Positions 11,142-54,110 are shown, numbered from the stretch's first letter. The stretch is DNA of 64,000 nucleotides from Candidatus Sulfotelmatobacter sp. (GCA_035498555.1 DATKAB010000161.1:2794-66793); one strand, 5' to 3'. Notes: generated by a model from the letters alone, not told the origin. Made by a program: numbers and translations.

Positions 11142-11777
11142 GTGAGAGTGCACGTGGCGCCTGATCGCGATCCGGTTCCTCCTCCCATTGTCCGCCTCTC
11201 GGACGAAGACCTGATGGCCCGGGTCTCCGAGGACGAGGAGCGGGCATTCACGGAGCTGGTCCGGCGCTTTCAAGGCCGCGTGATCAATCTCATCAGCAGG
11301 GTCCTGAACGACCGGGAGAGCGCGGACGACCTCGCGCAGGAAGTCTTCGTCCGGGTTTACGTGCACCGGCGAAACTACCGGCGAGGCTCGAAGTTCTCCA
11401 CCTGGCTGTTCACGATCGCGGCGAACCTGGCCAAGAACGAGATCCGGCGACGGGTCCGCAAACGGCACTGGTTCAGCCTCGACGCCCTGCAGGATCTGCT
11501 CAAGGACAGCGCGCCGATTCTCGCCGACCCGACGGAGGGTTCGGAGCGCTCGATGGAACGCGAGCAGCTGCAGGAGGCGATGGCGCGCGCGATCGGCACC
11601 GTCCCTGAGAAGTACCGACTGGCCGTGGTTTTGAGAGATCTCGAAGGACTTCCGTACGAGGAGATCGCACAAGTGCTCGGCATCCCCGGCGGGACGGTGC
11701 GTTCGCGCATCAACCGGGCCCGGACCATGCTGAAGCGCAAGCTCCAACCGCTACTGCGCGACGAAGGCGACTCATGA
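11142..11777 (+). CDS. RNA polymerase ECF-type sigma factor (sigma-24/sigma-E-like)
   Basis: Region 2 (FTELVRRFQGRV...DLAQEVFVRVY) and region 4 HTH (LEGLPYEEIAQVLGIPGGTVRSRINRAR); alternative start at about 11214. Confidence 0.85.
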   Translation: MRVHVAPDRDPVPPPIVRLSDEDLMARVSEDEERAFTELVRRFQGRVINLISRVLNDRESADDLAQEVFVRVYVHRRNYRRGSKFSTWLFTIAANLAKNEIRRRVRKRHWFSLDALQDLLKDSAPILADPTEGSERSMEREQLQEAMARAIGTVPEKYRLAVVLRDLEGLPYEEIAQVLGIPGGTVRSRINRARTMLKRKLQPLLRDEGDS

Positions 11778-12388
11778 ACTGCACCCATGCCCGCAGGTTG
11801 TTCGCAGCCTTCTGGGACGACGAAACGACGCAAGCCGAGCGCGAATGGCTCGAGGGACACTTCGCCTCCTGCCCGGCGTGCCGGCGCGACTACGAGCAGT
11901 ACGCCCGAACCCTCGAGCTGCTGGGATCGCTCCCGCGCATCGAGGCCTCACCCGATCTGGCCGAGCGCGCCCTGCAACGGGCGAGACGGTCGGAGACCGC
12001 TCCCGACCGACTCCCACAGCTCCGCCCGCAGTGGGTGCCGATCACGGCCGGAGCGGCTGCCGTGCTGCTGCTCACGCTGACGGTGCTGGGGCCGTGGCTG
12101 TCCGGCTCGCGCTCCCCACGGGTTGCCCAGCGTGCCCCCGTCGGTCAGTCGGTGACGGAGCCGGTCCTGGTCCATTCGCCGGCGGCCCCGTCGCACGGGG
12201 CGGCCCGTGCGATCGATTCGCGTCTGCCGGCCAATCTCGCCGCCAACGCGCCGCTGCCCGACAGCCTGTTCGACCATTCGGCCGACGTGGAATTCATCCT
12301 CGATCCGGTGACGCTCCATCGCGGGCGTGCCTCGGTGACTCACTCCTCCGGCGCCACTCAGGGCGAGAGGGCGGTCATCACTTTCTAG
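11774..12388 (+). CDS. anti-sigma factor, zf-HC2 type, single-pass membrane
   Basis: 4-nt overlap with sigma gene; H-x3-C-x2-C motif (EGHFASCPACRRDYEQY); TM helix WVPITAGAAAVLLLTLTVLGPWL. Confidence 0.75.
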   Translation: MNCTHARRLFAAFWDDETTQAEREWLEGHFASCPACRRDYEQYARTLELLGSLPRIEASPDLAERALQRARRSETAPDRLPQLRPQWVPITAGAAAVLLLTLTVLGPWLSGSRSPRVAQRAPVGQSVTEPVLVHSPAAPSHGAARAIDSRLPANLAANAPLPDSLFDHSADVEFILDPVTLHRGRASVTHSSGATQGERAVITF

Positions 12389-12398
12389 GAGTACCGGG

Positions 12399-13628
12399 AT
12401 GAGATTCGCCGGAGCCGGGCCGCGGGACCAGCGCTACAGGGCGCTCGCCCTGGTCTCGCTCGTGGCGTTGCTGTGCTCCGCGACGCCTGCCTTTCCCCAG
12501 TCCGACCTCTCGGCGCTCCAGACCGACGTCGCGTCGATGTCGAAGCGGGTGCGCGGCTCGGTGGTCGTGGTGGTCTCGCTCAGCAACGAAGAGCATCGCG
12601 ATCATCGGACCGGGAGAACCGTCTCGGGAGTTCACACCCGCGTCGGCTCGGGGGTCGCGGTCGAGGAGAGCGCGATCCTCACCACCGCCAGCGTTGTGCT
12701 GCGAGCCGACCGGGTGGTGGTGCGCACCGCCAACGGCCTGCAGCTCGACGCGAGCATCGCCGGCGTGGATCCGGTGTTCAACGTCGCGCTGTTGCGTGTG
12801 CCCGGGGTCCGCCTGCCCGTCCTGCACCTCGCGACCGAACGGCCCCCTCAAATCGGCGACTGGGTTCTGACGGAGGGCGCCTCCTACCGCTTCCAGCTCA
12901 CCGAATCGGTGGGCACGATCAACGCGTTCTACAGCGAGCCGCGCCTTTCGCTGCTCCAGCTCTCGAACACGGTGTCGCCCGGCAACAGCGGCGGCGCGGC
13001 CGTCAATGCCCGCGGCGAGCTGATCGGCATCGTTCAGGGCGAGCTCGGCTCGCCCGATATCGGCGCCACTTCCGACGGCGAGCGCCGCCCGACCGGCATG
13101 AGCTTCGTGCTGCCGGTCGAGACCCTGTCGCGCGTCTACGACGCGCTGCGCCGCGACGGCCGCGTGCGCCACGGCTATCTCGGCGTCACCACCAGCGGCG
13201 CGTCGGTGCCGAGCGAGACCGAGCGCGGAAGCCAGGTGCCGATCGGCGCCCTGGTCGAGAGCGTGATTCCCGGTGGCCCGGCGGCGAAGCTCGGATTGCA
13301 GCGCGGCGATCTGATCGTCGGATTCGATGGCGAGCGCGTCGAGTATCCCGGCCAGCTGGCGCGATGGGTGGCCGCCACCCCGCCGGGAACCGCGGTGGGC
13401 CTGGTGTGGGTCCGCCAGGACCTGCAGAAGGTCGGAAGCGCGTTGCTCGGCGAATCGCCCGACGTGGCACCGAGCTGGGCGCTCACCGCATCCGCTGCCG
13501 CGACGTCGTCGGCGCGTTCCAACTCCACCTCCCCGGATCGCATCTCGGATCTCGAGCGCCAGATTCAGGAGCTCAACCGGCAGCTCGAGCAGCTCAAGGG
13601 TCAGAGTCAAGCTCCGCGCCGCGAGTGA
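12399..13628 (+). CDS. HtrA/DegP-like trypsin-family serine protease with PDZ domain and C-terminal coiled coil
   Basis: Signal peptide; catalytic GNSGGAAVN serine motif; PDZ (GALVESVIPGGPAAKLGLQRGDLIVGFDG); C-terminal LERQIQELNRQLEQLKGQ. Confidence 0.8.
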   Translation: MRFAGAGPRDQRYRALALVSLVALLCSATPAFPQSDLSALQTDVASMSKRVRGSVVVVVSLSNEEHRDHRTGRTVSGVHTRVGSGVAVEESAILTTASVVLRADRVVVRTANGLQLDASIAGVDPVFNVALLRVPGVRLPVLHLATERPPQIGDWVLTEGASYRFQLTESVGTINAFYSEPRLSLLQLSNTVSPGNSGGAAVNARGELIGIVQGELGSPDIGATSDGERRPTGMSFVLPVETLSRVYDALRRDGRVRHGYLGVTTSGASVPSETERGSQVPIGALVESVIPGGPAAKLGLQRGDLIVGFDGERVEYPGQLARWVAATPPGTAVGLVWVRQDLQKVGSALLGESPDVAPSWALTASAAATSSARSNSTSPDRISDLERQIQELNRQLEQLKGQSQAPRRE

Positions 13629-19199: not shown

Positions 19200-20279
19200 C
19201 TAGCGCTGCTGCGCCTGCCAGAGCATGACGGCGCCTGCGCCGCCGAACACCAGATTCCCCGACCACGCCGCCAGGTAGGGGGGCAGCGCACCGTTGTGCC
19301 CGAACGCCTGGCCCATCCGCACGAAGGCGTAGTAGGCGATCGCGATCGCGATCGACAGGCCGAAGCCGAGCGCGGTGCTCTGCGAGCGCAGGCGGGTCGC
19401 GACCGAGGCGCCGATCATGATCACGATCAGGTTGACCAGCGGCAGGGCCAGCTTGAGGTGCAGATCGACGAGATGGCCGGCCACGCGCGCCCCGCTCGCG
19501 CGGAGACGCTCGACGTAGTTGCGCAGCTCAGCGTAGCTCATCTCGTCGGGATTGCGGGTTTCGCGGGCGAAATCCTCGGGCCGCTCGCGAATCCCGCCCA
19601 CCGTCATGCGATCGAAGGGGCGTGCCTGCTCCTGCCCGCCCACGAAGGTGCGCACCACGCCCGAGCTGAAGGTCCAGCCGCTGCCGTTCCAGCTCGCCTC
19701 GTCGGCGTCGATGCGGCGCACCAGCGCGCCGTTGTGGAATTCCTGCAGCGAGACCTCGTGCATGCGGCGCTCCTTGATCAGGTAGAGCCGCATGATGTAG
19801 ATCCGCCCGCCCTCGCCGAGATAGGTGACGTCGGCGCGCTCGGTCGGCTGCTCGGTGCGAACGCGCTCGATCTGCTCGTGGAGCACCTCGTCACGCACCC
19901 GGTTCGCGCCCGGCACGATCAGCTCGTCGATCAGGAACGCCCCGAGCGTCACCAGCACCGACAGCGCCATGATCGGGCGCAGGATGCGGAGCAGCGAGAG
20001 GCCGGCGGCGCGCATCGCGGCCAGCTCGCCGAACTTGTTCAGCTGGCCGAGCGCGAGAAAGGTGGCCAGTAGCATCGCAATCGGCAGGATCTGGACGATG
20101 GTCTGCGGGGCCTGGAGCAGCAGGTAGCGCGCCACGGTCTGGGGCGGCGCGTGCTGGTCGAGGAAGACGTCGATGCGCTGGAACAGCTCGACCACCAGCA
20201 GGATGACCACGAAGCCGGTGACGCCGAGCGCCAGATAACCGGAGAATTCGCGCAGCAGGTAGCGATCGAGAATCTTCAC
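19200..20279 (-). CDS. lptG: LPS export ABC permease, LptG-like (YjgP/YjgQ family)
   Basis: VKILDRYLLREF N-terminus (GTG start overlapping upstream stop as GTGA), 6 TM segments with periplasmic beta-jellyroll region; track ORF extends spuriously upstream. Confidence 0.7.
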   Translation of the reverse strand: MKILDRYLLREFSGYLALGVTGFVVILLVVELFQRIDVFLDQHAPPQTVARYLLLQAPQTIVQILPIAMLLATFLALGQLNKFGELAAMRAAGLSLLRILRPIMALSVLVTLGAFLIDELIVPGANRVRDEVLHEQIERVRTEQPTERADVTYLGEGGRIYIMRLYLIKERRMHEVSLQEFHNGALVRRIDADEASWNGSGWTFSSGVVRTFVGGQEQARPFDRMTVGGIRERPEDFARETRNPDEMSYAELRNYVERLRASGARVAGHLVDLHLKLALPLVNLIVIMIGASVATRLRSQSTALGFGLSIAIAIAYYAFVRMGQAFGHNGALPPYLAAWSGNLVFGGAGAVMLWQAQQR

Positions 20280-21673
20280 GCCGCGGCGCTCCGGGGCGCC
20301 AGCCGGGCCCGCGGCTGCGCCGACGATCGCATCGTCGGCCACGGCAGATCGCAGGCCTTCCAGGTGGCGATGATTCCCCAGAGTCCGAGCACCAGATTCG
20401 GAAGCCACATCGACAGCCACGGCGCGATCAGCAGCCGGTCCGCCAGCTCTTCGCCGCCAACCAGACACATGTAATAGAACAGGAACAGCGGCACCGACAG
20501 GAACGCGACCGCCGGACCGGTGCGCCGCACCCTCATGCCGAGCGGCGCGCCGAGCAGCACGAACACCACGCAGGCGGTCGGCAGCGAGAACTTCTTGTGG
20601 ATCTCGACCGACAGGCCGGCAATGCGCTTGAGCAGCGCCTCCCGTTCCAGTCTCCACATGTCGAACTCGGCGCGCACCACCGGCGAGTTCCGCGCGACAT
20701 CCTCGAACTCCTGCCGGTGGAGGATCACGCGCGCCAGCCAGCCCGTCAGCCGGGCGGGCCACGGCTGGCGCTCGGGAGTCAGCGCGGCGAGGTCCGCCTG
20801 ACTGGCGCCGAGCCCGCGAAGTCGCAGCCGGCGATCGAACACCGCGTCCCGGTACTGACGCGTGATGCTGTCACGCACGGCGATCAGCTCCTTCGCGCTC
20901 ATCTCGCGATCGGTGCGCGAATCGCGCACCGTGCGCTCGAGGAACGCGCCGGCTCCGGGAATATTGATGGTGTGGGTCTTGAACACCAGACGGCGATAGT
21001 GACGCGCGCCCTCCTCGTCGGGGGGAATGTCGTGGATCTCGCCGTCCTTCAGTTCCAGCACCGCGGTGTGGCCGTCGGGCGAGTAGGAGAGCATGCCTTT
21101 CTTGGCGAAGATCGTGGTCGGAGGTCCGCCGGCGCGCAGCTGGTAGATCGTCACGCCGCTCATCTCGTTGGTTCGGCCGTTCACCGACTGGACCAGCAGG
21201 TTGTAGCCCGGGAAATCGGTGATGAACACCCCCTCCTGCAGCTTGACCGTGGGCCGCATGCGGCCGATATCCACCATGAGGTTGAAAAATGCATGGTTGG
21301 CGTCGGGCAGCACGTGGTTGTTGAACAGCGTCATCAGGATGGCCAGGACTACCGAAGCCCCGAGCGGGGCGACCAGGGCCTGGGCCACGTTCACTCCGCC
21401 GGCCCTCATGGCGGTGATCTCGTTGTCCTGCGAGAGCCGCCCGAAGGTCATGAGGACCGCCACCAGGACCGCGCAGGGCAACGACATGGCCAGCACGAAG
21501 CCCAGGGAGAGCACGAAGATCTGGCCGACGACCAGTACCGGGACCCCCCGGTTGACGATCAGGTCCATGTACTGGATCAGGGCGTCCATCTCGAGGATGA
21601 AGGTGACGACCCCGAAGCCGAGAAGAAAGGGAACCAGGTGCTGCCGGAGAATGTAGGAACGAAGGATACCCAC
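20276..21673 (-). CDS. lptF: LPS export ABC permease, LptF-like (YjgP/YjgQ family)
   Basis: ILRSYILRQHLVPFLLGF start region (GTG at about 21673), TM topology as for lptG; tandem with lptG. Confidence 0.7.
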   Translation of the reverse strand: MGILRSYILRQHLVPFLLGFGVVTFILEMDALIQYMDLIVNRGVPVLVVGQIFVLSLGFVLAMSLPCAVLVAVLMTFGRLSQDNEITAMRAGGVNVAQALVAPLGASVVLAILMTLFNNHVLPDANHAFFNLMVDIGRMRPTVKLQEGVFITDFPGYNLLVQSVNGRTNEMSGVTIYQLRAGGPPTTIFAKKGMLSYSPDGHTAVLELKDGEIHDIPPDEEGARHYRRLVFKTHTINIPGAGAFLERTVRDSRTDREMSAKELIAVRDSITRQYRDAVFDRRLRLRGLGASQADLAALTPERQPWPARLTGWLARVILHRQEFEDVARNSPVVRAEFDMWRLEREALLKRIAGLSVEIHKKFSLPTACVVFVLLGAPLGMRVRRTGPAVAFLSVPLFLFYYMCLVGGEELADRLLIAPWLSMWLPNLVLGLWGIIATWKACDLPWPTMRSSAQPRARLAPRSAAA

Positions 21674-21809
21674 GGGGGCGGAGCCTACCCCACGGGCCGT
21701 AAGAGGAGCGAATGGATTTGCCGCGGCATGACTTAGCCCATTTCGCCGCGGTCGCGACGGTCCGCCGCTGCGCCTCCCCCGCAGGTGGCGCGAGTGTTTC
21801 GGGGCATGA

Positions 21810-24800
21810 ATGCCGATTGCGCCCACCCTGCCAGCACTGGCATTTCTAATCTCTCTCAAGGGTTTCCCGGGGTTTGGCCTTCACAAGGCCAAGCCGGCCC
21901 CTGCGGACACCCTGCCGCCTCCCTGGCGACCGGTCAGCCGCCTGACGCTCGAAAACGACTTCGTGACCGCCGCGCTGCCCCCGATCGTGGACAACTGGGT
22001 GGCGCTGAAGCTGACCTTCGACCCGCGCACGCTGCGGGTCAACGTCGACCCCGATTCGGGCACCGTGAGCGCCGGGCCGCTGGTGAACACGGTTCCGGTG
22101 GGTCCGCCGCTGCGCCTGACCTTCGACAGCTATGCCGATCAGATGTCGCGCGACAATTTTCAGCGCTTGTGGGTCAAGAAATCCGTCGAGTCCATCAACA
22201 CCCGAGCGGCGGTAGCCGGGCCCACCACCGGTACCGGGGGGCTGTCGTTCAAGCTGCCCTCGCCGCTCCCCAAACAGGTCCAGAGCCTGCTCGGTCCGGG
22301 CGGACCGGCGATCAACGTGGCGGGTTCGGAGAACATCCGCTTTTCGGGCCAGAGCAACTGGACCAATCAACAGATTGGACCGCTGGGGCAGAAGCGCTCG
22401 CTGTTCCCTTCGCTCGACATGCAGCAGGACCTCGACATCCGACTCGAAGGCCAGCTCTCGGATCGGATCAAGGTCAACCTGTTGCAGAACTCGGCCAACC
22501 AGGTGCCGCTCGCCAATCGGATCTACATCAACTACAAGGGCGAAGAAGACGACATGGTGCAGCAGCTGGCGCTCGGCAACACCGATCTCTCGCTGCCCGG
22601 CACCCAATACGTCTCCTACAGCGGCAAGAACGACGGTCTGTTCGGCATCAAGTCGGCCCTGCGCTTCGGGCCCGCCGACTTCACCCTCCTGGCCAGCAAG
22701 CAGGAGGGCCGCAGCGAGCGCGCCACCTACACCGGCGGGGCCTCGCACCAGACCGGCACGCTCGCCGACATGGACTACATCCGTGGTGTCTTCTACTTGC
22801 TCTACGATCCCAACACGCTCCCGAGCTGGCTGCCGCCGAGCGTGGCGGCGGACCCCAATTTTGCGGGCATCGACATTCCTGAGACCTCGATCAAGGTCTA
22901 TCTCGACGACTACAACTACGGCAACGACATCAACGTGGTGCGCGGCAAGGCCCTAATCAATCCCGAGGATCGCGGCACGTCGGTGGCGGACTCTTCGGCG
23001 GTGCGCGGGTCGTTCGCGCTGCTCAATCCGGGCGCGAATGCCGACTACGAGATCCTGCGCAACGTCTACGGCCCGTTCTTCAAGGTCCTGCGCCTGGTGA
23101 AGCAGGTGAGCGGCGAGCAGCGGCTGGGCATCACCTATCAGGCGCGAGCGTTGGCCAAGGACGGCTCCCAGCTCTATCCGCCGGGCGGCGCACTGGTGGA
23201 CATCGGCGGCGAGTACGAGGTGGACGCCGCACCCGACACCGCGCACGCGTTGCGCATGAAGCTGTTGCGCCCGCCCCAGAGCCAGCTGAGCCAGGACGCC
23301 GCCGGCAACTACGACACCACCAACGTATTCACGCGCGTGCGCGACCTCGAGCTGCACAATTTCTACCAGCTCCCTGGCCAGCGGATCGATCCGACGACCT
23401 TCACCATGGCCATCCAGCGGGGCGTGGACCAGCCGCCGGTCACGTTCCTCAACCTCAAGGACGCCGCTCACACTCCGGTTCCCTATATCGAGGCGCTCGG
23501 GCTCGACAACGTCGATGAGACCACCGGCCAGCCGCTTCCCGGCCACGACGCCAAGGTGGACGGCTCGCTCGTCAGCACGGACAGCCGGGCATTCATCGAC
23601 TACGAGAACGGCATCCTGTTCTTCCCGGACATCCGGCCGTTCGCTCCGCGCCTGGCCGGCCCCGACGCGAAGCCGTTCGAGCAATTCGTGAGCAGTCACT
23701 TCGTGTTTCGGCGCGATTCGCTAACCGCCAATCCCGACAGCGCGGACGGGGCGAACCCGTTTATCTACGACAAGTACAACCCGCGGCGGGACCTCGACGT
23801 CCGCTACTACATCAACCTGGACTTCACCGCGGCGCGGGCGGTGGGCGACATCTCGCTGGGTCGCGGCAACATCCTCGAGGGATCGGAGGTCATCACCATC
23901 AACGGCGACCAGCTGGTGCGCGACCGCGACTACTCGATCGACTACGACATCGGTCGCGTCACCCTCAAGCGCCAGCTCGGCCCCGCCGACCAGCTCAACG
24001 TGAACTACTCCTACGCCCCGCTGTTCGCGCAGGCCGGACGCACGCTGATCGGCAGCGACTTCCGCATCGAGGGCCGTGACAAGCGGGTCGGCGCGGCGCT
24101 CATGTACGAAAGCACCGGCGCCCAGGACATCCGCCCGCGTCTGGGCGAGGAGCCGTCGCGCAGCATCATCGGCGACTTGAACACCGAGTTCACGCTGCAT
24201 CCGGACTGGATCACGCATCTGGTGGATCGGCTGCCCGGCATCCGCACGACCACCCAGTCGGATTTCCACGTTCAGGCCGAAATGGGCCTGTCGCTGCCCA
24301 ATCCCAACACCAAGAACGTCGTCTATCTCGACGACATGGAGGGCGTGAAGGACGCCGTGTCGCTCTCCATGACCGCCGAGCACTGGCTCCACTCGAGCGT
24401 GCCGAGCCGTCTGGTCAATGGGATCAGCACGCCGCTCCTGGCGCTGGCCAAGCAGCACAACGCCGAGATCCAGTGGTACTCGCCGCCCTCGGCGGTGAAG
24501 GAGAAGGAATTGAATCCCGACCTCACCCAGGCGCAGGGCTCCGACAACTCGCGCCAGGTGCTGGCGCTGTCGATTCCGCGGCGGCCGACCAGGAACATCG
24601 ACAATTCGCTCGGGTCGCCGGACACCCTCTGGGCCGGCCTCACCTATTCGCTGGACAAGGTGGGGCTCGATCTGTCCCGCGCCCAATTCATCGACATCTG
24701 GGTCAACGATTTCAACGATCATCACAACTGGCCGAACGCGGAGCCACGCGTGCGGGGGCTGAACGTCAAGTTGCATCTCGATCTGGGTGTGGTGAGCGAG

Positions 24801-27800
24801 GACCAGATGCGCTCCCCCGACGAACCACCCAACGGAAAGCTCGACACCGAGGACCTGGTGCCACGCGACAACGTGCTGAGCGTCACGGGTGGACAGGATG
24901 AAGACACCGGAGTCGATGGCCTGAAGGACAAGGACGAGCCGGGCTTCGGCAATCCCGATCCGAATTTCTGGCGCGACCTGACGACGGCGAGCGCGGCCGA
25001 CCCCGGAGGCGACGACTTCCACACCGTCAACGAGAATTACAAGGACCCGATCGACACCCGCCGTTTCTTTGGCACCAACGGCACCGAAGCCAACAAGAAC
25101 CTGCTGCCATTCCCCGACACCGAAGACCTGAATCTCAACAACAACATCGACACCAGCGAGAACTATTTCGAGTACACGATCGAGCTGGGGCAGCGGAACA
25201 ACCCGTACCTGGTGACGGACGTGCAGCGCGACTATCCGGGCCGCGCGGTCACCGACTCGCTCAATGGCTGGAGGCGCTACCGCATTCCGCTCTCGGACTC
25301 GCTGCGCCGGGTGTTCGGCTCCCCCGATCTCACCCTGGCCCGGCATCTTCGGCTGTGGATGGAGGGCATCATGCGCCCCGATCCGCCGGCGGATTCTCTG
25401 TCCAGCGGGCAGCCGGTGCGGCCGCTGATCGTGCTGGGTGGGCTCGACATCGTCGGCAGCCGCTGGCAGACCGCGATCCTCGACAGCGCCGCGCAGGTGA
25501 ACGGCACGACCCTGACGCTCAACAGTGTCAACACCATCGACAATCCCTACTACGTCGCGCCGTTCGATCCCGGCGAGACGCTGGCCGGCAGCCAGAGCGT
25601 TGCGCGGCGAGAGCAGTCGCTGTCGCTCGAGTTCACGCAGCTGATGCCCGGACAGACGCTGGAAGCGTTCAAGACCTTTTCGGTCGAAGAGGACTACAGC
25701 CGCTACAAGGCGCTCGACTGGTTCGCCACCGGCTTCAACGTTTCCGGCTTCAGCGCCGCCACCGACACCGCCCTCTACTATTTCGTCCGCTTCTCGTCGG
25801 ATGAGCTCGGCCAGAGCTATTACGAGTACCGGACGCGCCTGCCGCGCTACAATGGCACCTCGGGCGGCTGGCAGACCGTGCACTTGCCGCTCACCGATCT
25901 CTCGAATCTCAAGCTTCGTCCGGATTTCCCGATCAACGATCCCATCCATTACTCGGCCGCCGGCAGCCAGCCGGGGGATTCGCTGATCGTGAACGGCCGG
26001 CCCTCGTTCACCCGATTGCGACGCATCTCGGTGGGACTCGTCAACGCCTCGAACAAGATCTATGACTCGGGGCAGCTCTGGTACGACGAGCTGCGCGCCA
26101 CCGACGTCGCCAAGGATGTCGGCCACGCGAGCCGCCTCCAGATGGACGGCAAGTTCGCGAACCTCTTCCGCTACAACCTGGCCTACAACGCGCGCGACGC
26201 CAACTTCGTCTCGGTCGGCGAGTCGCGCGGCTCGGGCAACAGCACCTCGGACCTGACGCTGGGGGGCGGGCTCGACATCTATCGCTTCTTCGAGGGCACC
26301 GGGATCGTCATCCCGCTCTCCGGCACCTATTCGCGCAATACGTCGCAGCCGATGTTCACGGCCGGCGATGACGTGGTGCGCACCGGCGCCCTGCAGGCCA
26401 ACAGCGAGACCGGCAGCGAGTCCAAGAGCCTGAGCGCCAGCTACAGCCGGTCGTGGAGCGACCGTTCGAACCCGTTTCTTCGCTACACGCTCGGTGGCAT
26501 CACCGGCAGCTACACCTATTCGACCAGCGACGGGCACGGACCGACCTCGCTGAGCAACGGAGAGACCCGCAGCGCGACCGTCTCGTACGGCATCAGCCCG
26601 CGCAACCTGTTGCGGCTCCCGATTCCGCACACCCGGATCAACCTGTTCCCGCTGCCCGAGCACCTCTTCTGGAACTACGGAGTGTCCACCACCAACAGCC
26701 AGAGCTTTGTCGTGCTTCGCGACGGGACGGTCCTGCCCCAGACCAATATCGCCGCGCGCAGCGCCGCGATCACCTTTGGCGCGGATACGCGCCCGCTCGA
26801 CATCCTGCATCACCATTTCGACGCGGTGCGAAGCCTGACCCTGCCGGACAACCTCCTCGAGCGCATCGGCTTCATCAATCTGGGACGCGTGACGCAGTGG
26901 CGGCAGAGCTTCGACTCGCGATACGCCATGACGCGCGGACCCTGGCTCTCGCCGAGCTTCTCGTGGAACTCGAACTACAACCAGGACAATCGCCCGGATC
27001 TATCGCCGGACATGTCGGTGCGCGCGATCAACAACGGCCAGGGGATCTCGGGAAGCTGGGCGCTGCCCTTCGATCGGCTGGGGCGAAGCCAGTCCGCCCT
27101 TCCCGACAGCACGCACCGAGGGCCGCGCTTCTCGGTGGGGTCCCTGCTCTCCAGACTGGGGAGCTTCTCGGCCGACGCGAGCGTGAACCAGTCGAGCTCG
27201 TACTCGAGGCTCGCCGGCGTCCCGAGCATTCCGTACCTGGTCGGCATCACCAGCCAGCCGGGATTCAGCCTGGTGCCGGGGCACGGGGTGACACCTCAAT
27301 TCGGCAACTCCTCGAGTCAATCGTTCAACTGGCGGACGGCGGGACGAACCCGGCTGGCGCTGGGAGCCGATGTCTACATGTCGGTGCGCGCCGAGTACAA
27401 CAACTCGAAGAACAACGTGAACGGGCTGCTCACGCGGTCGATCGCCACCAAGTTCCCGGACTTCGACCTGGACTACGGCCGGCTCGCCCAGATCACCCAC
27501 TTGACGCACTTCCTGGAGAATCCCACCCTGCGCACGTCCTACACCCGGTCGGTTCAGACCGACTTCCTCGGCATCTCGACGATTCCGACCGGGCGCAGCA
27601 TCAGCAGTCAGTGGTCGCCGCTGGTCAGCGTCAGCGGCACCTTCAAGAACCAGACGCGAGCCGAACTCAGAATCGAGCGTCGCGTGAGCGAGCGCGAGAA
27701 CTTCCAGTTGGTCAATTCCATCACCACCAGTCGCAACACCGACGTCAATCTCAACTTGAGTCGCGCCTACAGCAAGGGCCAGAAGATCTCGGTGCTCGGC

Positions 27801-28067
27801 CGCGAGAGCACGGTGCGCAGCAACGTCAACCTGTCGCTGGCGATGGTCTACTCGAAAGAGAGCGGCGAGACCCGCCAGGCGGGTTACAGCCAGCCCCAGC
27901 TGCCGGTGGACCGCGACCGGCTGTCGCTCACCGGCAACGGCTCGTATTCCTTCAGCAACAACGTGACCGGCAATCTCACCCTGGGCTACGGCCTGAACCG
28001 CGACATTCAACGCGACATCATCTCTCAGAACATTCGCGTCGAAGTGCGCGCCGCTTTCACCTTCTGA
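21810..28067 (+). CDS. giant (~2085 aa) outer-membrane beta-barrel protein, SprA/Sov-like (T9SS translocon family)
   Basis: Length/composition typical of SprA-family proteins (Asn/Ser/Thr/Tyr-rich amphipathic strands), C-terminal beta-barrel signature ...NIRVEVRAAFTF ending in Phe; family assignment from recollection, not a search. Confidence 0.5.
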   Translation: MPIAPTLPALAFLISLKGFPGFGLHKAKPAPADTLPPPWRPVSRLTLENDFVTAALPPIVDNWVALKLTFDPRTLRVNVDPDSGTVSAGPLVNTVPVGPPLRLTFDSYADQMSRDNFQRLWVKKSVESINTRAAVAGPTTGTGGLSFKLPSPLPKQVQSLLGPGGPAINVAGSENIRFSGQSNWTNQQIGPLGQKRSLFPSLDMQQDLDIRLEGQLSDRIKVNLLQNSANQVPLANRIYINYKGEEDDMVQQLALGNTDLSLPGTQYVSYSGKNDGLFGIKSALRFGPADFTLLASKQEGRSERATYTGGASHQTGTLADMDYIRGVFYLLYDPNTLPSWLPPSVAADPNFAGIDIPETSIKVYLDDYNYGNDINVVRGKALINPEDRGTSVADSSAVRGSFALLNPGANADYEILRNVYGPFFKVLRLVKQVSGEQRLGITYQARALAKDGSQLYPPGGALVDIGGEYEVDAAPDTAHALRMKLLRPPQSQLSQDAAGNYDTTNVFTRVRDLELHNFYQLPGQRIDPTTFTMAIQRGVDQPPVTFLNLKDAAHTPVPYIEALGLDNVDETTGQPLPGHDAKVDGSLVSTDSRAFIDYENGILFFPDIRPFAPRLAGPDAKPFEQFVSSHFVFRRDSLTANPDSADGANPFIYDKYNPRRDLDVRYYINLDFTAARAVGDISLGRGNILEGSEVITINGDQLVRDRDYSIDYDIGRVTLKRQLGPADQLNVNYSYAPLFAQAGRTLIGSDFRIEGRDKRVGAALMYESTGAQDIRPRLGEEPSRSIIGDLNTEFTLHPDWITHLVDRLPGIRTTTQSDFHVQAEMGLSLPNPNTKNVVYLDDMEGVKDAVSLSMTAEHWLHSSVPSRLVNGISTPLLALAKQHNAEIQWYSPPSAVKEKELNPDLTQAQGSDNSRQVLALSIPRRPTRNIDNSLGSPDTLWAGLTYSLDKVGLDLSRAQFIDIWVNDFNDHHNWPNAEPRVRGLNVKLHLDLGVVSEDQMRSPDEPPNGKLDTEDLVPRDNVLSVTGGQDEDTGVDGLKDKDEPGFGNPDPNFWRDLTTASAADPGGDDFHTVNENYKDPIDTRRFFGTNGTEANKNLLPFPDTEDLNLNNNIDTSENYFEYTIELGQRNNPYLVTDVQRDYPGRAVTDSLNGWRRYRIPLSDSLRRVFGSPDLTLARHLRLWMEGIMRPDPPADSLSSGQPVRPLIVLGGLDIVGSRWQTAILDSAAQVNGTTLTLNSVNTIDNPYYVAPFDPGETLAGSQSVARREQSLSLEFTQLMPGQTLEAFKTFSVEEDYSRYKALDWFATGFNVSGFSAATDTALYYFVRFSSDELGQSYYEYRTRLPRYNGTSGGWQTVHLPLTDLSNLKLRPDFPINDPIHYSAAGSQPGDSLIVNGRPSFTRLRRISVGLVNASNKIYDSGQLWYDELRATDVAKDVGHASRLQMDGKFANLFRYNLAYNARDANFVSVGESRGSGNSTSDLTLGGGLDIYRFFEGTGIVIPLSGTYSRNTSQPMFTAGDDVVRTGALQANSETGSESKSLSASYSRSWSDRSNPFLRYTLGGITGSYTYSTSDGHGPTSLSNGETRSATVSYGISPRNLLRLPIPHTRINLFPLPEHLFWNYGVSTTNSQSFVVLRDGTVLPQTNIAARSAAITFGADTRPLDILHHHFDAVRSLTLPDNLLERIGFINLGRVTQWRQSFDSRYAMTRGPWLSPSFSWNSNYNQDNRPDLSPDMSVRAINNGQGISGSWALPFDRLGRSQSALPDSTHRGPRFSVGSLLSRLGSFSADASVNQSSSYSRLAGVPSIPYLVGITSQPGFSLVPGHGVTPQFGNSSSQSFNWRTAGRTRLALGADVYMSVRAEYNNSKNNVNGLLTRSIATKFPDFDLDYGRLAQITHLTHFLENPTLRTSYTRSVQTDFLGISTIPTGRSISSQWSPLVSVSGTFKNQTRAELRIERRVSERENFQLVNSITTSRNTDVNLNLSRAYSKGQKISVLGRESTVRSNVNLSLAMVYSKESGETRQAGYSQPQLPVDRDRLSLTGNGSYSFSNNVTGNLTLGYGLNRDIQRDIISQNIRVEVRAAFTF

Positions 28068-28993
28068 TGATCCGGCCGCGCGTGCTGGCGATGCTGGTGC
28101 CGCTCGCGCTGCTCTCGTGCGCGGCCCGCTTCACCCCCCCGATCGACGGCGGACGCGCGCACGATCGCGTCGCGAAGCAGGTCGCGTTCGGCCCGCGCAT
28201 CCCCGGAACCCCGGGCCACCAGGCGATGCGCGCGTGGCTGGTGGCGGAGCTGCGCCGGCTCGGAGCCGACGTCGAGGAGCAGACCTTCGTCGATTCCACG
28301 CTCGGCAAGCGGATGTCGCTCTGCAACGTCATCGGCCGCTATCCGCCGGCCCACCCCGGCGTCACCCGCCGCGTGATGCTGTGCGCGCACTGGGATTCGC
28401 GGCCGTGGAGCGACGAGGACCCCGACACGGCCTCGCGCCGGCTGCCCTGCCCGGGCGCCAACGACGGCGGCTCGGGGGTGGCGGTGCTGTTCGAAGTGGC
28501 CGAGTGCCTGTCGCGGGAACGCGCGCCGGTGGGGGTGGATCTGGTGTTCTTCGACGCCGAGGACATGGGCCGCTCGACTCGGCCGGATGAATTCTCGATC
28601 GGCGCGAAGGAGTACGCCCGTCGCCTGCCTGCGACCGGCGATCCGCGGCGGCCGGTCGCCGCCTTTCTTTTCGACATGGTCGGCGATCGTGATCTCGACA
28701 TCCCGGTTGAATCCAACTCCTATCAACGCGCGGCCAATCTCGTCGCGCTGGTACTGGACGGCGCCCGGGCCACCGGCTCCAGGGCTTTCCACGACGAAAT
28801 TCGCTATACGATCGTCGACGACCACCTGCCGCTTCTCGACGCCGGGCTGCCGGCCGTCGACCTGATCGACTTCGACTACCCGGTCTGGCACACGCACCTG
28901 GACCTGCCCGATCAGGTCGCCCCGGCCAGCCTGGCCGAGGTTTCCCGGGTGGCGGCCTGGCTCGTCTATCGCAGCCCCCTCTCGGGACCTTAG
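28067..28993 (+). CDS. M28-family zinc peptidase / animal-type glutaminyl-peptide cyclotransferase-like lipoprotein
   Basis: ATG overlaps sprA-like stop (TGATG); lipobox LALLSCAA; metal-site motifs LCAHWDSR (cf. CHYDS), DGGSGVAVL, FFDAEDMG, WHTHLD. Confidence 0.6.
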   Translation: MIRPRVLAMLVPLALLSCAARFTPPIDGGRAHDRVAKQVAFGPRIPGTPGHQAMRAWLVAELRRLGADVEEQTFVDSTLGKRMSLCNVIGRYPPAHPGVTRRVMLCAHWDSRPWSDEDPDTASRRLPCPGANDGGSGVAVLFEVAECLSRERAPVGVDLVFFDAEDMGRSTRPDEFSIGAKEYARRLPATGDPRRPVAAFLFDMVGDRDLDIPVESNSYQRAANLVALVLDGARATGSRAFHDEIRYTIVDDHLPLLDAGLPAVDLIDFDYPVWHTHLDLPDQVAPASLAEVSRVAAWLVYRSPLSGP

Positions 28994-29191
28994 GTTGTGA
29001 GGCGGAGAATGTTGATCGCCTGCCGCGGGCCCGAACTCGGGAGAAGCCGGATCGAATTTTCAAGGACTTAGCGGCCCGATTCCCCCCATCAACAGTCTGC
29101 GCCGCACAACCAAGACGCTGGCCCGGCTTCCCATCCCCGCCCGAGGGGGCCGCTTGCCGATCCCGCGGCCATGAGTTACTGTGCCGCCTGA

Positions 29192-29225
29192 GGAGTGGGG
29201 CAGGCGCGACCACTCCGTTTTTTTC
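29192..29225 (+). terminator. intrinsic terminator-like hairpin (GGAGTGG/CCACTCC stem, 11-nt loop, T7-8 tract) about 20 nt upstream of rimP start; probable leader attenuator
   Basis: ggagtggggcaggcgcgaccactccgttttttt read directly. Confidence 0.6.
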
Positions 29226-29242
29226 CCCTCCCGGGAGCCGAA

Positions 29243-29731
29243 TTGGAAGTCCGAGAAGAAGTTCGCCAGTTGAGTCAGCCCCTCGCCGAGGAGCTTGGCT
29301 ACGAGCTGGTGGACGTCGAAGCGCTCGTGCTCGGACGAGCCAGAGTGCTGCGTGTGCTGCTCGACAAGCCAGGCGGCATCACGGTGGGGGAGTGTGCCGC
29401 GTTCAGCCGCCGACTCGGTGACAGTCTGGAAATGAACCAGACCGTTTCCGGGAGCTATCACCTGGAGGTGAGCTCCCCGGGAATCGACCGGCCGATTCGT
29501 ACGCTGGAGGCGGCGGCGCGATTCGCGGGACGGCACGTCACGCTGACCACGCACGAGCCGCACGACGGACGGCGCCACTGGGATGGCGCGTTGCTGGTCG
29601 CGAAGGACGGGCGTGCGGGCGTGCGTACCGAGGATGCAGTCGAGCACTGGTTCGCATGGGCGGACGTGAAGTCCGCCCGGCTGGTGGTGGATCCCTGGGA
29701 AGGCAAGCGTTCGCAGAGGGGACGCCGATGA
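29243..29731 (+). CDS. rimP: ribosome maturation factor RimP
   Basis: DUF150/RimP-like sequence (LVDVE, HLEVSSPGIDRP), canonical position before nusA; TTG start about 29243 (track ATG 29195 possible). Confidence 0.75.
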   Translation: MEVREEVRQLSQPLAEELGYELVDVEALVLGRARVLRVLLDKPGGITVGECAAFSRRLGDSLEMNQTVSGSYHLEVSSPGIDRPIRTLEAAARFAGRHVTLTTHEPHDGRRHWDGALLVAKDGRAGVRTEDAVEHWFAWADVKSARLVVDPWEGKRSQRGRR

Positions 29732-31116
29732 ACAACGAAATTCTTGAGGCGCTCAGTCAGATCACGCGCGAAAAGAGCGTGGATCGGGCGCTTCTGATCG
29801 AGACGCTCGAGGCCGGGCTGGCCAGCGCCGTGCGCAAGAAGCACGGTGCGACCGCCGACGTCGAGGTCAAGTTCTCGAATGACACCGGCTCGATCACGGT
29901 GGCGATCAAGAAGACCGTCGCCGAGACCGTCGAGGATCCGGCCCTGCAGATGACGCTCGAGGAGGCAAGGGCCAATCGGCCTGCCGCCGCGGTCGGCGAC
30001 GTGATCGTGATTCCTCTGCCGATCGCCGAGTTCGGGCGCAACGCGATTCTCGCCGCCAAGCAGGTGTTGATTCAGCGCGTGCGCGAGGCCGAGCGCGAGC
30101 GCGTGTATCGCGAGTACTCCGACAAGATCGGCACGCTGGTGCGCGGCGTGGTCCAGCAGGTGGACCGCGGCAACGTGATCGTCAAGCTCGATCATTCCGA
30201 GGGGTTCCTGCCGGCGCGCGAGCAGATTCCCCGCTCGTACCACCGCCAGGGCGATTACGTGCGCGCGGTGGTGCACAGTGTGGACAAGCTGGCCAAAGGT
30301 CCGCAGGTGATCCTGTCGCGCACGCAGCCGGATTTCCTGCGCCGCCTGTTCGAGTCCGAGGTGCCCGAGATCGCCGACGCCATCGTCGAGATCAAGGCGG
30401 TGGCGCGGGAGGCCGGCGCCCGTTCCAAGATCTCCGTGTATTCGCACGATCCGCGAGTGGACGCGGTCGGTTCGTGCGTGGGGCTCAAGGGTTCGCGCGT
30501 TCAGAGCATCGTGCGCGAGCTGGGCGGCGAGCGCATCGACATCGTGCCGTGGTCCCAGGATCCTGCGGTGTTCGTGTCGCGCGCGCTGGCGCCGGCCAAG
30601 GTGATGGACGTCAAGGTGCGCGAGGCCGAGAAGCGCATGATCGTGGTGGTCGCCGACGATCAGCTGTCGCTCGCCATTGGCAAGGGCGGACAGAACGCTC
30701 GACTGGCCGCGCGGCTCACCGGCTGGAAGATCGACCTGATCTCGAAGAGCGAGGAGAAGAAGCGGCTCGAGCTGGAACGCGCGAGTCGCGTCGAGATCGA
30801 AAAGCTCGAGCTGGGCGAAGCCACCACCGAGAAGCTGATCTCGGCGGGCATCGAAACGGTCCAGGAGCTGCTCGCCAAACCGCTCGAGACGCTGGTCGAG
30901 ATTCCGGGCATTGGCGAGAAGACCGCCGAAAAGCTGATCGCGACCGCGCAGGAGTATCTGGCCGCACATCCGCCGGCACCGCCGGAGGCGCCGAAGCAGG
31001 ACATGGAATTCACGCCGGAGATGGAAGCGGCGCCCGATGCAGCCCCCCCGGCAACCACGGAAGAGGCGGCCGCGGCCGAGACGGCCGGATTGAATCACGG
31101 AGAACCGAGTGCCTAG
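29728..31116 (+). CDS. nusA: transcription termination/antitermination factor NusA
   Basis: ATGA overlap with rimP; S1 and KH domains, GxxG (IGKGGQN), C-terminal HhH acidic repeat. Confidence 0.9.
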
Positions 31117-33415
31117 CGCCACCCCTCCCAAGAAGCAGCGGGTCTACGAAGTCGCCAAAGACCTCGGCATGTCCAGCGAGGCCGTACTGCAGATCGTGCG
31201 GCGCATGGGCGTCGAGGTGAAGAATCACATGAGCACGCTCAGCACCGAGGCGGTCGAGAAGGTGCAGGCGGAGATGGCTCACGAACGCACCGCGGTGCGC
31301 GAAGAGCAGGCGCGCAAGCACGAGCAGGAGCTGCAGCGCGCCCGCGAGGAGCGTGCCCGCGCCGCCGCGCAGGCCGCCGCCGCCGTCGCCGCGCAGGCGG
31401 CCGCCGCGCCCGCCGCGCCGGCGCGCCCGGCTCCGCTCCGGCCGGCGCCGACCCTGCCCGCGCGACCCACCGGTCCCGCGCCGCGGCCGCTCGAGCCCCG
31501 CGGCTTTCGCCGGCGCGATCGCAAGAAGAAGAAAGTGGTCGACGAGAAGCTCGTCATCGAGAGCGTTCGCAAGACCCTCGCCAGCCTCGATACCGGACAG
31601 GCGCGCCGGCGTCATCGCCGTCGTGACGAGGAAGGCGAGGGAGCCGGCGCCGAGGCGGCGCGCGTCATCCACGCCACCGAGTTCATCACCGTGGCCGAGC
31701 TCGCGAACCTGATGGAAGTGAAGCCGCAGGAAGTCATCACCACCGCCATGCGGATGGGCGTGATGGCCACCATGAACAAGCGGCTCGACAAAGACACCAT
31801 CGAAGCGGTGGCCGATGAGTTCGGCTACGGTGTCGAGTTCGAGGCCGAGTACGGCACGGTCGAATCCGAAGCGCCCGCCGAGGTCGAAGAGGGCGAGCGG
31901 CTGCCCCGGGCGCCGGTGGTCACGATCATGGGCCACGTGGATCACGGCAAGACCTCGCTGCTCGACTACATCCGCAAGACCAACGTGATCGCGGGCGAGG
32001 CCGGCGGCATCACCCAGCACATCGGCGCCTACGAGGTCGAGCTCCAGGATGGCCACAAGATCACCTTCCTCGACACGCCCGGCCACGAGGCGTTCACCGC
32101 GATGCGCGCACGCGGCGCGCAGGTGACCGACGTGGTGGTGCTGGTGGTGGCGGCCGACGATCGCGTGATGCCGCAGACCATCGAGGCCATCGATCATGCC
32201 AAGGCCGCCAACGTTCCGATCGTGGTGGCGATCAACAAGATCGATCTGCCGACCGCCAAGCCCGATCTGGTGAGGCAGGAGCTGGCGACCCACGGCGTGG
32301 TGGTCGAAGCCTATGGCGGCAAGACCGTGGCCGCCGACATCTCCGCCAAGCGCGGCACCAACGTGGACAAGCTGCTCGAGCTGATCCTGCTGCAGGCCGA
32401 GCTGCTCGATCTCAAGGCCGATCCCGTGCGGCGGGCGAAGGGCGTGGTGCTCGAGGCCCGGGTCGAACAGGGCCGCGGCGTGGTGACCAGCGTGCTGGTG
32501 CAGCAGGGAACGCTGCGCGTCGGCGACGCCTTCGTCGCCGGCCAGCACTCCGGTCGCGTGCGCGCGATGTTCGACGAGCGCGGCCGCACGGTGAAGCAGG
32601 CGGGGCCCTCGACGCCGGTCGAGGTGCTGGGCTGGAGCGGGACGCCCGCGGCCGGCGACACGTTCGTGGCCTTCCTCGACGAGCGCGAGGCGCGCGAAAT
32701 CGCCGCCAAACGACAGGCGCTGCATCGCGAGCAGGAGTTCCGCGCGGCCAAGGCGATTTCGCTGACGGAATTCCACTCGCGCATGGCCCAGGGCGAGACC
32801 AACGAGCTCAAGCTGGTGATCAAGGGCGACGTGGACGGCTCGGTCGAGGCGCTGTCCGAGGCGCTCACCCGCCTCAGCACCTCCGAGGTCTCGGTGCGCA
32901 TCATCCGCCAGGCAGTCGGGCAGATCAGCGAATCGGACGTGCTGCTGGCCGCCGCCTCGTCGGCGATCATCGTCGGCTTCCATACGCGGCCCGACGCGCG
33001 GGCGCGCGAGCTCGCCGAGCGCGAACGCGTCGAGATCCGGTTCTACGACATCATCTACAAGGCCGTGGACGAGGTGAAGCAGGCGCTCGAAGGCCTGCTC
33101 AAGCCCGAACTCAAGGAAGTCGTGCTGGGAGCGGCCGAGGTGCGCCAGGTGTTCAAGCTGTCCAAGTCCGGCACCGTGGCCGGCTCGATGGTGACTTCGG
33201 GCACGATTCCGCGCACCGGAAAGGTCCGGCTGATCCGCGGCGGCGAAACGGTGTGGACCGGCCGTATTCAGGCATTGCGCCGCTTCAAGGACGACGTGCG
33301 CGAGGTGTCCAGCGGCTTCGAGTGTGGCATCACCCTCGAGGGCTGGCAGGATCTCAAGGTGGGCGACGTGATCGAGGCGTTCACCATCGAGGAGATGGCC
33401 CGGACGCTCGGCTGA
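31109..33415 (+). CDS. infB: translation initiation factor IF-2
   Basis: G-domain [25 protein letters not shown]; Ala/Pro/Arg-rich N-terminal linker; 768 aa. Confidence 0.95.
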
Positions 33416-43558: not shown

Positions 43559-43788
43559 TCCGCCTGCAATTCCCTCGATTTACGGCAGTTCCCGATTGCG
43601 GTCGGAGGTCTCCCGAGACGCCATTTGCTACTTCCTGGGACGGGTTCTGAGTGATTTGACCCTTCCTCTGGGTGGGTAACACGCCCCCAGGCTTCGCGTC
43701 CGGTGACCGCTTCGACCCGTCCCTCGACAGGGCGGGCTCGGTCGTTCCCTCGCGAAGCACGACGGGCCGCAAGCGTTCGGGAGTCGAC

Positions 43789-44541
43789 TTGATCTCCAGA
43801 TTCATCTCGCGTTCGTTCCTACCGCTGGTGCTCGTCCTCTCCTTGGCGGCGCCCGCGCTTGCGGACCTCGGCTCGGCCGACTCCACTTCGATGGACTGGA
43901 GCCGCGTGCCCGAGTACCGCATCGTTCCCGGCGACCTGCTGCGCTTCAATTTCGGACCGTTGCTGTTCAACTATCAGGATCTCCTTCGCGAGGCCCGGGT
44001 CCGGCCCGACGGGCGCATCTCGGTCTACCCGGTGGGCGAGGTGCTGGCCGCGGGCCGCACCGTGCAGGAGCTGCAGACCGCGGTCCTCAACATGATGGCG
44101 GCCGAGTACAAGAACCCGCGGGTGTCGATCGAGCTGGCCGACGTCGCCGGCAACAAGGTCCATGTGATGGGACAGGTCAAGTCGCCGGGCTCCTATCCGG
44201 TGCAGCCCTTCATGACGGTCAGCCAGGCGATCGCCGCCGCCGGGGGATTCGCGGATGACGCGGCACGCAACAGCATCCTGCTGGTGCATCGCGATGGAGC
44301 GCATACCGTGCTGGTGGCGCGCATCCGCATGGATCGCATCATCCGCCAGGCCGCCTTCGGCGAGGATCTCCAGCTCTCCCGGTTCGACCTCGTGATCGTG
44401 CCGCGCTCGGCGATCGGCAACATCGACATCTTCCTGCGTCAGTTCTTCGGTGACGCTGGCGTCGCGTTCAACACCTCGATCCTGGGCTGGGAACTCTTCC
44501 ACCTCGACCGCGTCTTCTTCATCGGCAATACGAGTCACTGA
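43789..44541 (+). CDS. polysaccharide export protein, Wza/KpsD family (Poly_export + SLBB)
   Basis: TTG start then signal peptide ISRFISRSFLPLVLVLSLAAPALA; Poly_export core YRIVPGDLLRFNF...NKVHVMGQVKSPGSY and SLBB-like C-terminus. Confidence 0.8.
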   Translation: MISRFISRSFLPLVLVLSLAAPALADLGSADSTSMDWSRVPEYRIVPGDLLRFNFGPLLFNYQDLLREARVRPDGRISVYPVGEVLAAGRTVQELQTAVLNMMAAEYKNPRVSIELADVAGNKVHVMGQVKSPGSYPVQPFMTVSQAIAAAGGFADDAARNSILLVHRDGAHTVLVARIRMDRIIRQAAFGEDLQLSRFDLVIVPRSAIGNIDIFLRQFFGDAGVAFNTSILGWELFHLDRVFFIGNTSH

Positions 44542-46726: not shown

Positions 46727-46732
46727 TCGCTC

Positions 46733-51352: not shown

Positions 51353-51368
51353 TGAATCGGAGGCAACC

Positions 51369-52750: not shown

Positions 52751-52758
52751 GCCCGGCT

Positions 52759-53967: not shown

Positions 53968-54110
53968 GAGGCTCGGGATCCGGTTCGCATCAGGGCAAAT
54001 AGTCTAGGCGAGCGCTCGGAATCTCACCAGCGGCGACGGCGCGCGCGCGCGCCCGCCGCGGCGGCGAAGGCTCGAACGCCTTCCGCCGCGTCCCGCTGAC
54101 CGAGCGCGCC

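Follow-up and report, generated by a model that had tools for sequence, protein, structure and literature searches.

We analyzed a 64,000-nucleotide stretch of DNA, referred to below as the window, which is publicly labelled Candidatus Sulfotelmatobacter sp., and concentrated on two adjacent genes on its plus strand. The first encodes a 2085-aa homologue of SprA/Sov, the outer membrane translocon of the T9SS (type IX secretion system), and the second a 308-aa predicted lipoprotein of the glutaminyl cyclase (QC) family. The reading frames overlap by one base, and the same two genes in the same order form a conserved cassette in at least eight phylum-level lineages of the Fibrobacteres-Chlorobi-Bacteroidetes (FCB) superphylum, while the genes surrounding the cassette change. 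The features of the locus are collected in Table 1.

Table 1. Features of the sprA-QC locus and its flanks, by position in the window.
Feature	Position	Strand	Basis
lptG (19200-20279) and lptF (20276-21673), divergent from sprA	19200..21673	-	Pfam LptF_LptG; tblastn synteny
sprA/sov, T9SS outer membrane translocon, 2085 aa	21810..28067	+	TIGR04189, Pfam SprA_N, 6h3i homology
TGATG junction: sprA stop 28065-28067 shares base 28067 with QC ATG 28067-28069	28065..28069	+	sequence
Type II (PgQC-like) glutaminyl cyclase, M28 fold, 308 aa, predicted lipoprotein	28067..28993	+	Pfam M28, PDB sequence matches, AlphaFold2 and Foldseek
Lipoprotein signal peptide, lipobox A-L-L-S-C; Cys18 codon 28118-28120	28067..28120	+	sequence
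Asp133-Gly134, Asp133 being a Zn ligand (PgQC Asp149-Gly150)	28463..28468	+	alignment to PgQC
Glu165-Asp166, catalytic base and bacterial-QC-specific Zn ligand (PgQC Glu182-Asp183)	28559..28564	+	alignment to PgQC
Trp274-His275, QC-type Trp followed by third Zn ligand (PgQC Trp298-His299)	28886..28891	+	alignment to PgQC
rimP-nusA-infB, 250 bp 3' of the QC gene	29243..33415	+	domain matches and tblastn synteny

A preliminary description of this DNA had taken the larger protein for a SprA/Sov-like translocon of about 2085 aa, and the profile searches bear this out. The NCBIfam equivalog model TIGR04189 ('T9SS outer membrane translocon Sov/SprA') matched it with 530.2 bits (E 1.2e-158; curated cut-off 200 bits) and the Pfam model SprA_N with 76.7 bits (E 2.3e-21; cut-off 27). 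In addition, residues 593-1454 (~860 residues) aligned to residues 607-1534 of Flavobacterium johnsoniae SprA (6h3i_A, E 1.5e-32). The protein has the coordinates and the C-terminus that had been described: it ends in RVEVRAAFTF, an aromatic beta-signal. Thus, by the curated equivalog model and by its similarity to the solved F. johnsoniae protein, it is a SprA/Sov homologue. It shares membership of TIGR04189, giant size and the aromatic terminal beta-signal with F. johnsoniae SprA (6h3i/6h3j) and Porphyromonas gingivalis Sov, and differs from F. johnsoniae SprA in being ~320 residues shorter (2085 versus 2403 aa) and in having an atypical N-terminal signal. This N-terminus (MPIAPTLPALAFLISLKGFPG...) is hydrophobic and has no positively charged n-region; the stretch at window positions 21810-21880 reads MPIAPTLPALAFLISLKGFPGFG, and an in-frame TGA lies directly 5' of it. 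Since the SprA of L156, a metagenome-assembled genome (MAG) labelled Eisenbacteria, has a similar atypical N-terminus, the feature does not stem from faulty assembly of the contig. The NCBI entry identical to the window protein (HTO92050.1) is named 'cell surface protein SprA'.

The 308-aa protein, annotated in public as 'M28 family peptidase' (identical entry HTO92051.1), matched Pfam Peptidase_M28 with 99.2 bits (E 3.2e-28; cut-off 21.3). Its best sequence matches in the PDB were 3tc8 (PdQC, 9e-47), 6qro (TfQC, 6e-46) and the P. gingivalis cyclase PgQC (6qql/7cje, 2e-41), and weaker ones were human QC (about 1e-12) and genuine aminopeptidases (2e-8 or weaker). The structure predicted by AlphaFold2 from an alignment of Eisenbacteria homologues only (pLDDT 94.2, pTM 0.91) was used in a Foldseek search of the PDB. 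The top 50 matches were all glutaminyl cyclases, bacterial QCs leading the list with template modelling (TM) scores of 0.83-0.90. Solved members of the family are also available from Planctomycetes and Acidobacteria.

The active site points in the same direction. Animal QCs and M28 aminopeptidases have Glu-Glu at the pair formed by the catalytic base and the adjacent metal ligand. In the window QC this pair is Glu-Asp. PgQC binds Zn through Asp149, Asp183 and His299; among these, Asp183 is peculiar to bacteroidal QCs, and the marks that set such QCs apart from dizinc M28 aminopeptidases are 'ED' in place of 'EE', Asp149-Gly150, and Trp298 preceding the His (PMC7948796). When the PgQC residues were mapped onto the window QC by sequence alignment (chain numbering offset 16), counterparts were found for all of them (Table 1). 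D133, D166, H275 and E165 are invariant both in an alignment of 15 diverse cross-phylum sequences (A1) and in one of 42 Eisenbacteria sequences (A3), and the same holds for the Asp-Gly, Glu-Asp and Trp-His pairs. The pattern of dizinc M28 aminopeptidases (Glu-Glu, an Asp-Asn or Asp-Asp cis peptide, and Tyr before the His ligand) was not found, the window QC having ED, DG and WH at these places. The preliminary description had based its glutaminyl-cyclase-like assignment on the motifs LCAHWDS, DGGSG (here within NDGGSG), FFDAED and WHTHLD. All of these are present and the assignment stands, but as motifs they are general to M28 proteins, and it is ED, Asp-Gly and Trp-His that mark the protein as a QC. 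Together, the sequence comparisons and the predicted fold support placing the 308-aa protein in the bacterial type II glutaminyl cyclase family and not among generic M28 aminopeptidases.

Compared with PgQC (PG2157/PGN_0202), TfQC, PiQC, PdQC (3tc8) and BtQC (4fuu), the window QC has the same predicted fold at the TM scores given above and ~45% identity (phmmer). With these Bacteroidota type II ('animal-type') QCs it has in common the Asp/Asp/His mono-zinc ligands, the catalytic Glu, Asp-Gly, Trp-His and the lipoprotein signal; it is unlike them in its probable Eisenbacteria host and in the loop before Trp-His, which is 7 residues shorter than in TfQC, the equivalent of PgPhe294 falling in this deletion. 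The predicted signal peptide is MIRPRVLAMLVPLALLSC, followed by AARF, and its lipobox, already recognized in the preliminary description as LLSC, is of the PROSITE type. The lipobox Cys18 is invariant in 42 Eisenbacteria homologues. PgQC, too, is a lipoprotein, anchored by Cys21 (PMC7948796). The strict lipobox pattern is present in 28 of 43 sprA-linked QCs, and most of the remainder have a Cys after a hydrophobic stretch. Some Marinimicrobia QCs have no lipobox (L129:6027-6941, L145:6048-6962 and L152:1396-2304); they carry instead a signal peptide of the signal peptidase I (SPI) type followed by Gln (...GLMA|QTG, ...DLWA|QTG and ...PLAA|QSG, respectively), and these cyclases may themselves be substrates of the Q-rule, the preference for Gln after the cleavage site discussed below.

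At the junction of the two genes the stop codon of sprA and the start codon of the QC gene share one base within TGATG, as the preliminary description had read it. Such a one-base overlap of stop and start is an arrangement typical of translational coupling. A scan of positions 21400-29400 for promoters and terminators was uninformative, with 0 sigma-70-like promoter sites and with terminator-like matches that fall inside coding sequence.

Conservation of the pair was analyzed in two scans. The first, a search of metagenomes with the window QC, returned 80 loci with 32-100% identity. Among them, the Eisenbacteria relatives L009 and L010 had sprA directly 5' of the QC gene, as did L012, L018, L019/L020, L021 and L033; the QCs of L012, L019/L020 and L021 are only 39-46% identical to the window QC. 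The pair was absent from gut Bacteroides-like metagenome contigs, in which a gene for an M19/C26 peptidase precedes the QC gene. For the second scan, a diverse QC alignment was run against a set in which each GTDB species was represented by one genome, and this gave 80 labelled loci; adjacency of sprA was called by tblastn with 3 and later 25 SprA queries, together with inspection of the open reading frames (ORFs). In 35 of these 80 loci sprA was found immediately upstream of the QC gene and on the same strand. This arrangement was present in all loci of Eisenbacteria (4/4), Zixibacteria (4/4), Marinimicrobia/Neomarinimicrobiota (8/8) and Zhuqueibacter (1/1), in KSB1 (3/4), Calditrichota (2/3) and Gemmatimonadota (1/2), in six of the 11 testable loci of Ignavibacteria, and in six of ten MAGs without a taxon label. 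It was found in none of 13 Bacteroidota-labelled MAGs, nor in Poribacteria (0/6), Armatimonadota (0/7), Cloacimonadota (0/2), Kryptonia (0/2), Rhodothermales (0/1) or Chlorobiaceae (0/1).

Predicted distances from sprA to the QC gene lie between -26 and +282 nt, and in 21 of 39 junctions, at which the QC start codons in other genomes were called heuristically, the genes overlap (by 1 or 4 nt) or are separated by at most 9 nt. When the neighbouring ORFs were clustered, SprA and QC were the only ones common to all lineages. The flanks recur in part: lptFG is an upstream neighbour in Eisenbacteria, KSB1 and Zhuqueibacter, nusA, within the downstream block rimP-nusA-infB, is shared by Eisenbacteria-labelled loci and related unlabelled MAGs, and infB is found near the pair in some Ignavibacteria as well. 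Other lineages have murB, Ham1, prmA, selA or a ComEA-like gene beside the pair. In an average-linkage clustering, the sprA-linked QCs were spread over many QC sequence clusters and interleaved with unlinked QCs, which fits an old linkage with repeated loss better than a single recently mobile cassette. The linkage looks ancestral to the T9SS-bearing lineages of the FCB group. In Bacteroidia, Rhodothermales, Kryptonia and some Ignavibacteria, whose QC gene is located elsewhere, it was apparently lost. In P. gingivalis, for instance, the PgQC gene heads the operon PG2157-PG2158-hemG (PG2157-PG2159; PMC10653852), which differs from the head-to-tail arrangement with sprA in the window.

Loci without the pair yielded some further observations. 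In a Gemmatimonadetes MAG (L142:7255-10816) the QC gene is immediately adjacent to lptG-lptF, which are on the minus strand, and sprA is missing from the junction, which looks like secondary loss or relocation of sprA from an ancestral lptFG|sprA-QC block. In L016:302-4066, L022:6168-9941 and L113:6166-9957, which also lack sprA at this place, a gene for a tetratricopeptide repeat (TPR) protein of ~1260 aa ends 20-30 nt 5' of the QC gene or overlaps it, and in L113 three genes for cargo with the C-terminal domain (CTD) of T9SS substrates adjoin the TPR gene. We considered these TPR proteins as PorW/SprE candidates and set them aside, because 45-73 bits, where the model requires 250, is no more than generic TPR similarity would give. 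PgQC-type cyclases with 42-47% identity to the QC of L019 are present in Poribacteria (L123, L128, L131, L141, L149 and L159) and in Armatimonadota (L106, L117, L153, L155 and L157).

A connection with type IX secretion is provided by Marinimicrobia-type loci. Behind the pair in L166:823-12956 and L162:2473-14001 come genes for a 'choice-of-anchor X' protein, for a protein of ~560-700 aa with a CTD and for two proteins of the PorV/PorQ family, the first of which matched NF033709 (PorV/PorQ) with 102 and 91 bits (cut-off 90) and the second of which stayed below the cut-off. Since genes for CTD-bearing and PorV/PorQ-family proteins adjoin the pair, the QC gene lies inside a T9SS cluster in these two loci. 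When the Marinimicrobia CTD-bearing proteins were considered as PorZ/PorU candidates, the match was confined to the CTD itself. In a search for CTD cargo of Eisenbacteria, a single CTD probe gave 5 candidates and a profile of 13 CTDs gave only fragments of 80-155 aa, none of them labelled Eisenbacteria.

We then turn to the presumed substrate, N-terminal Gln. The Q-rule holds in P. gingivalis for 77% of SPI substrates and for 86% of T9SS proteins, cargo and components of the system thus ranking with its best followers; QC is essential in this species, and capping of exported proteins with pyroglutamate protects them from aminopeptidases (PMC10653852). The preliminary description had presented pyroglutamylation as a modification of T9SS cargo in Bacteroidota; this cargo is indeed included, but QC acts on most SPI substrates and not on T9SS cargo alone (PMC5837995, PMC10653852). 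Bochtler et al. 2018 (PMC5837995) called the rule Bacteroidetes-specific, although Ignavibacterium album reached 77%, and described a 'continuum with no obvious pattern' for the rest of the FCB group. With a crude home-made signal-peptide predictor and small samples, we counted Gln at +1 of ~40% of predicted SPI substrates in loci of KSB1, Marinimicrobia and Zixibacteria versus 53-60% in Bacteroidota controls; the count for Poribacteria and Armatimonadota loci was 0 of 23. The predictor performs on the Bacteroidota controls and yields almost nothing in the high-GC Eisenbacteria loci, because these are syntenic housekeeping regions. Among CTD cargo proteins met by chance in the fetched loci, about half have, as judged by eye, Gln at the likely cleavage site (...FIHA|QNS, ...LTAFG|QMI, ...ICAYG|QIH, ...SAVIA|QPD, ...SLKA|QLL, ...LAFT|QGL, ...LSFA|QGL and ...WLSG|QSG). 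In the KSB1 locus L095 and the Marinimicrobia locus L158, and apparently also in L162, the +1 residue of SprA is likewise Gln. Non-cargo proteins of the linked lineages also begin with Gln, which speaks against a role of QC exclusive to the T9SS. Compared with the Q-rule of Bacteroidetes, the enzyme family is the same and the presumed substrates are likewise SPI products starting with Gln; what differs is that QC is tied to sprA precisely in FCB phyla other than Bacteroidia, several of which gave the crude count of ~40%.

The genome that carries the locus is most likely, on sequence similarity, that of a member of Candidatus Eisenbacteria. Labelled homologues with 63-67% identity to the window QC are assigned to 'Candidatus Eisenbacteria' or Eiseniibacteriota. 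In addition, the window NusA is 82% identical to NusA of L156, and the block accC-comB-lptG-lptF|sprA-QC-rimP-nusA-infB is colinear between the two. The NCBI record of the identical proteins HTO92050.1/HTO92051.1 has the label 'Candidatus Sulfotelmatobacter sp.' (Acidobacteriota), which in view of the NusA identity and the colinear block is probably a binning or labelling error.

The wider surroundings are of the housekeeping kind, beside lptFG and outside a por operon, as the preliminary description had it. The lptG-lptF genes belong to a synteny block that tblastn also found in KSB1, Zhuqueibacter and Gemmatimonadota loci, and downstream the gene order is rimP-nusA-infB-rbfA-truB-ribF-rpsO-pnp. 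Besides this nusA-infB-pnp region the window, with a G+C content of ~68%, contains fab genes, rnc, accBC and a gene for a PilT-like ATPase. Three consecutive genes at 11142-13628 are arranged like an envelope-stress module and encode an extracytoplasmic function (ECF) sigma factor, an anti-sigma factor of the zf-HC2 type and a DegP-like trypsin/PDZ protease. This protease has a signal region ending in ...ATPAFPQSD, and nowhere else in the window does a Gln lie close to a possible cleavage site. An exopolysaccharide cluster (43672-55640) encodes a Wza-like exporter, an EpsF-like chain-length determinant, a BcsQ-like ATPase, two Wzx-type flippases, a DegT aminotransferase and an LPG-synthase-TM protein. 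It is followed by a region of ~70-73% G+C (55640-60500), whose long ORFs have no codon-position GC bias of the kind seen in the neighbouring genes; a real-looking protein is encoded there only by the C-terminal part of ORF 56476-58479.

The explanation we favour, with a probability of about 0.72, is that sprA and the QC gene form a two-gene operon in a Candidatus Eisenbacteria genome, whose coupled, periplasm-facing cyclase caps the N-terminal Gln of exported proteins, T9SS cargo included. The identities of the two genes, the one-base overlap and the conservation of the pair across phyla against variable flanks are direct observations. The remainder of the model would run as follows. Both genes would be co-transcribed and translationally coupled, such that the cyclase is made whenever the translocon is made. 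The lipoprotein, whose mono-zinc QC active site is intact, would be anchored in a membrane facing the periplasm, where it would convert N-terminal Gln exposed by SPI into pyroglutamate on exported proteins, T9SS cargo and components among them. By analogy with P. gingivalis, the pyroglutamate would shield these proteins from aminopeptidases.

Several points weigh against this explanation. We infer co-transcription and coupling from gene geometry, and cyclase activity from conserved residues and the predicted fold. No further T9SS gene (PorK/L/M/N, PorV, PorU/Z or CTD cargo) was found in the 64-kb window, and no Gln was found near the N-terminus of the window SprA. The predictor and the samples behind the counts of Gln at +1 are as crude and as small as stated above. 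Concerning the Q-rule in Eisenbacteria, the window and the Eisenbacteria loci offered ~4 recognizable signal peptides without a clear Ala-X-Ala|Gln site; the candidates in the window are a TPR protein, the DegP-like protease (...AFPQSD, ambiguous), a DUF3108 protein and the Wza-like protein. Finally, the QC family is present in Poribacteria, Armatimonadota, Planctomycetes and Acidobacteria, and to our knowledge the T9SS is known in none of these. This indicates that the enzyme is not intrinsically tied to the T9SS.

A stronger version of the functional link is that QC is a dedicated, outer membrane-anchored accessory of SprA, physically associated with it in fixed proportion, which docks at or near its periplasmic face and cyclizes the N-termini of cargo at the pore during export. 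QC would then date back to the ancestral T9SS as one of its components; only in Bacteroidia would it have been uncoupled and generalized, with the Q-rule as a later expansion. The tight pairing across phyla with overlapping codons is typical of subunits made in fixed proportion, the Marinimicrobia-type loci have QC within a T9SS cluster, and Gln is frequent at the start of cargo in the linked lineages. Moreover, SprA is already known to have accessory proteins: the structures of Lauber et al. 2018 (PDB 6h3i, 6h3j) reportedly include PorV, Plug and PPIase. Together with SprE/PorW and PorD, which came later, these are earlier examples of partners that face the periplasm and work on cargo at the translocon, and PorV/PorQ-family genes adjoin the sprA-QC pair in the Marinimicrobia-type loci. 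QC was not reported among the partners of SprA/Sov in the literature searched. On the other hand, the Gln start is also found on non-cargo proteins of the linked lineages, the lipobox is absent from some Marinimicrobia QCs, PgQC has been drawn in the cytoplasmic membrane (PMC7948796), and a physical association of SprA with QC is purely what we infer. We regard such an accessory as unlikely.

Less likely still is that the gene order was conserved without a specific functional link, sprA and QC being two housekeeping genes of envelope biogenesis kept together by descent in an old lptFG-sprA-QC-rimP-nusA block. The housekeeping genes around the locus would agree with this, as would the recurrence of lptFG, nusA and infB near the pair in several phyla and the presence of the QC family in lineages without a known T9SS. 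However, the flanks vary by phylum (prmA, selA, murB, Ham1 or PorV/Q) and sprA-QC alone is constant. Overlapping or near-abutting codons have moreover been kept in the 21 of 39 junctions mentioned, and as a matter of general knowledge gene order of such age seldom persists without selection for co-expression. We consider it very improbable that the M28 protein works as a zinc aminopeptidase, or as a processing peptidase, in the trimming of T9SS cargo or SprA: its M28 fold with all classical metal-site residues, its public annotation and weak NCBIfam matches to aminopeptidases and DapE would allow it, but characterized QCs match ~38 orders of magnitude better by E value than aminopeptidases, the bacteroidal-QC-specific Asp ligand of 'ED', Asp-Gly and Trp-His are present and invariant, and the top 50 structural matches are all QCs.

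Taken singly, both genes are ordinary members of known families and were already annotated; the conserved cassette and its taxonomic pattern appear to be new. In the full-text literature searched, the coverage of which leaves out many subscription journals, we found no paper that links SprA/Sov to QC by gene order, operon or interaction, in agreement with the earlier view that a genetic coupling of translocon and cyclase was undescribed. One T9SS interactome paper that mentions 'cyclase' was set aside, as the term there refers to the adenylate-cyclase two-hybrid system.

The order sprA followed by an M28/QC gene provides a simple marker for T9SS loci, and for tests of QC function, in uncultured FCB phyla. 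The cassette is also of relevance to the QC inhibitors that are under development as selective anti-Porphyromonas agents. It gives a genomic rationale for two observations in P. gingivalis, the puzzling fact that QC is essential and the strong association of QC with T9SS proteins. More generally, the finding suggests that pyroglutamate capping and type IX secretion have a common evolutionary origin and that the Q-rule extends beyond Bacteroidetes; the 'no obvious pattern' seen outside that group may track the sprA-QC cassette.

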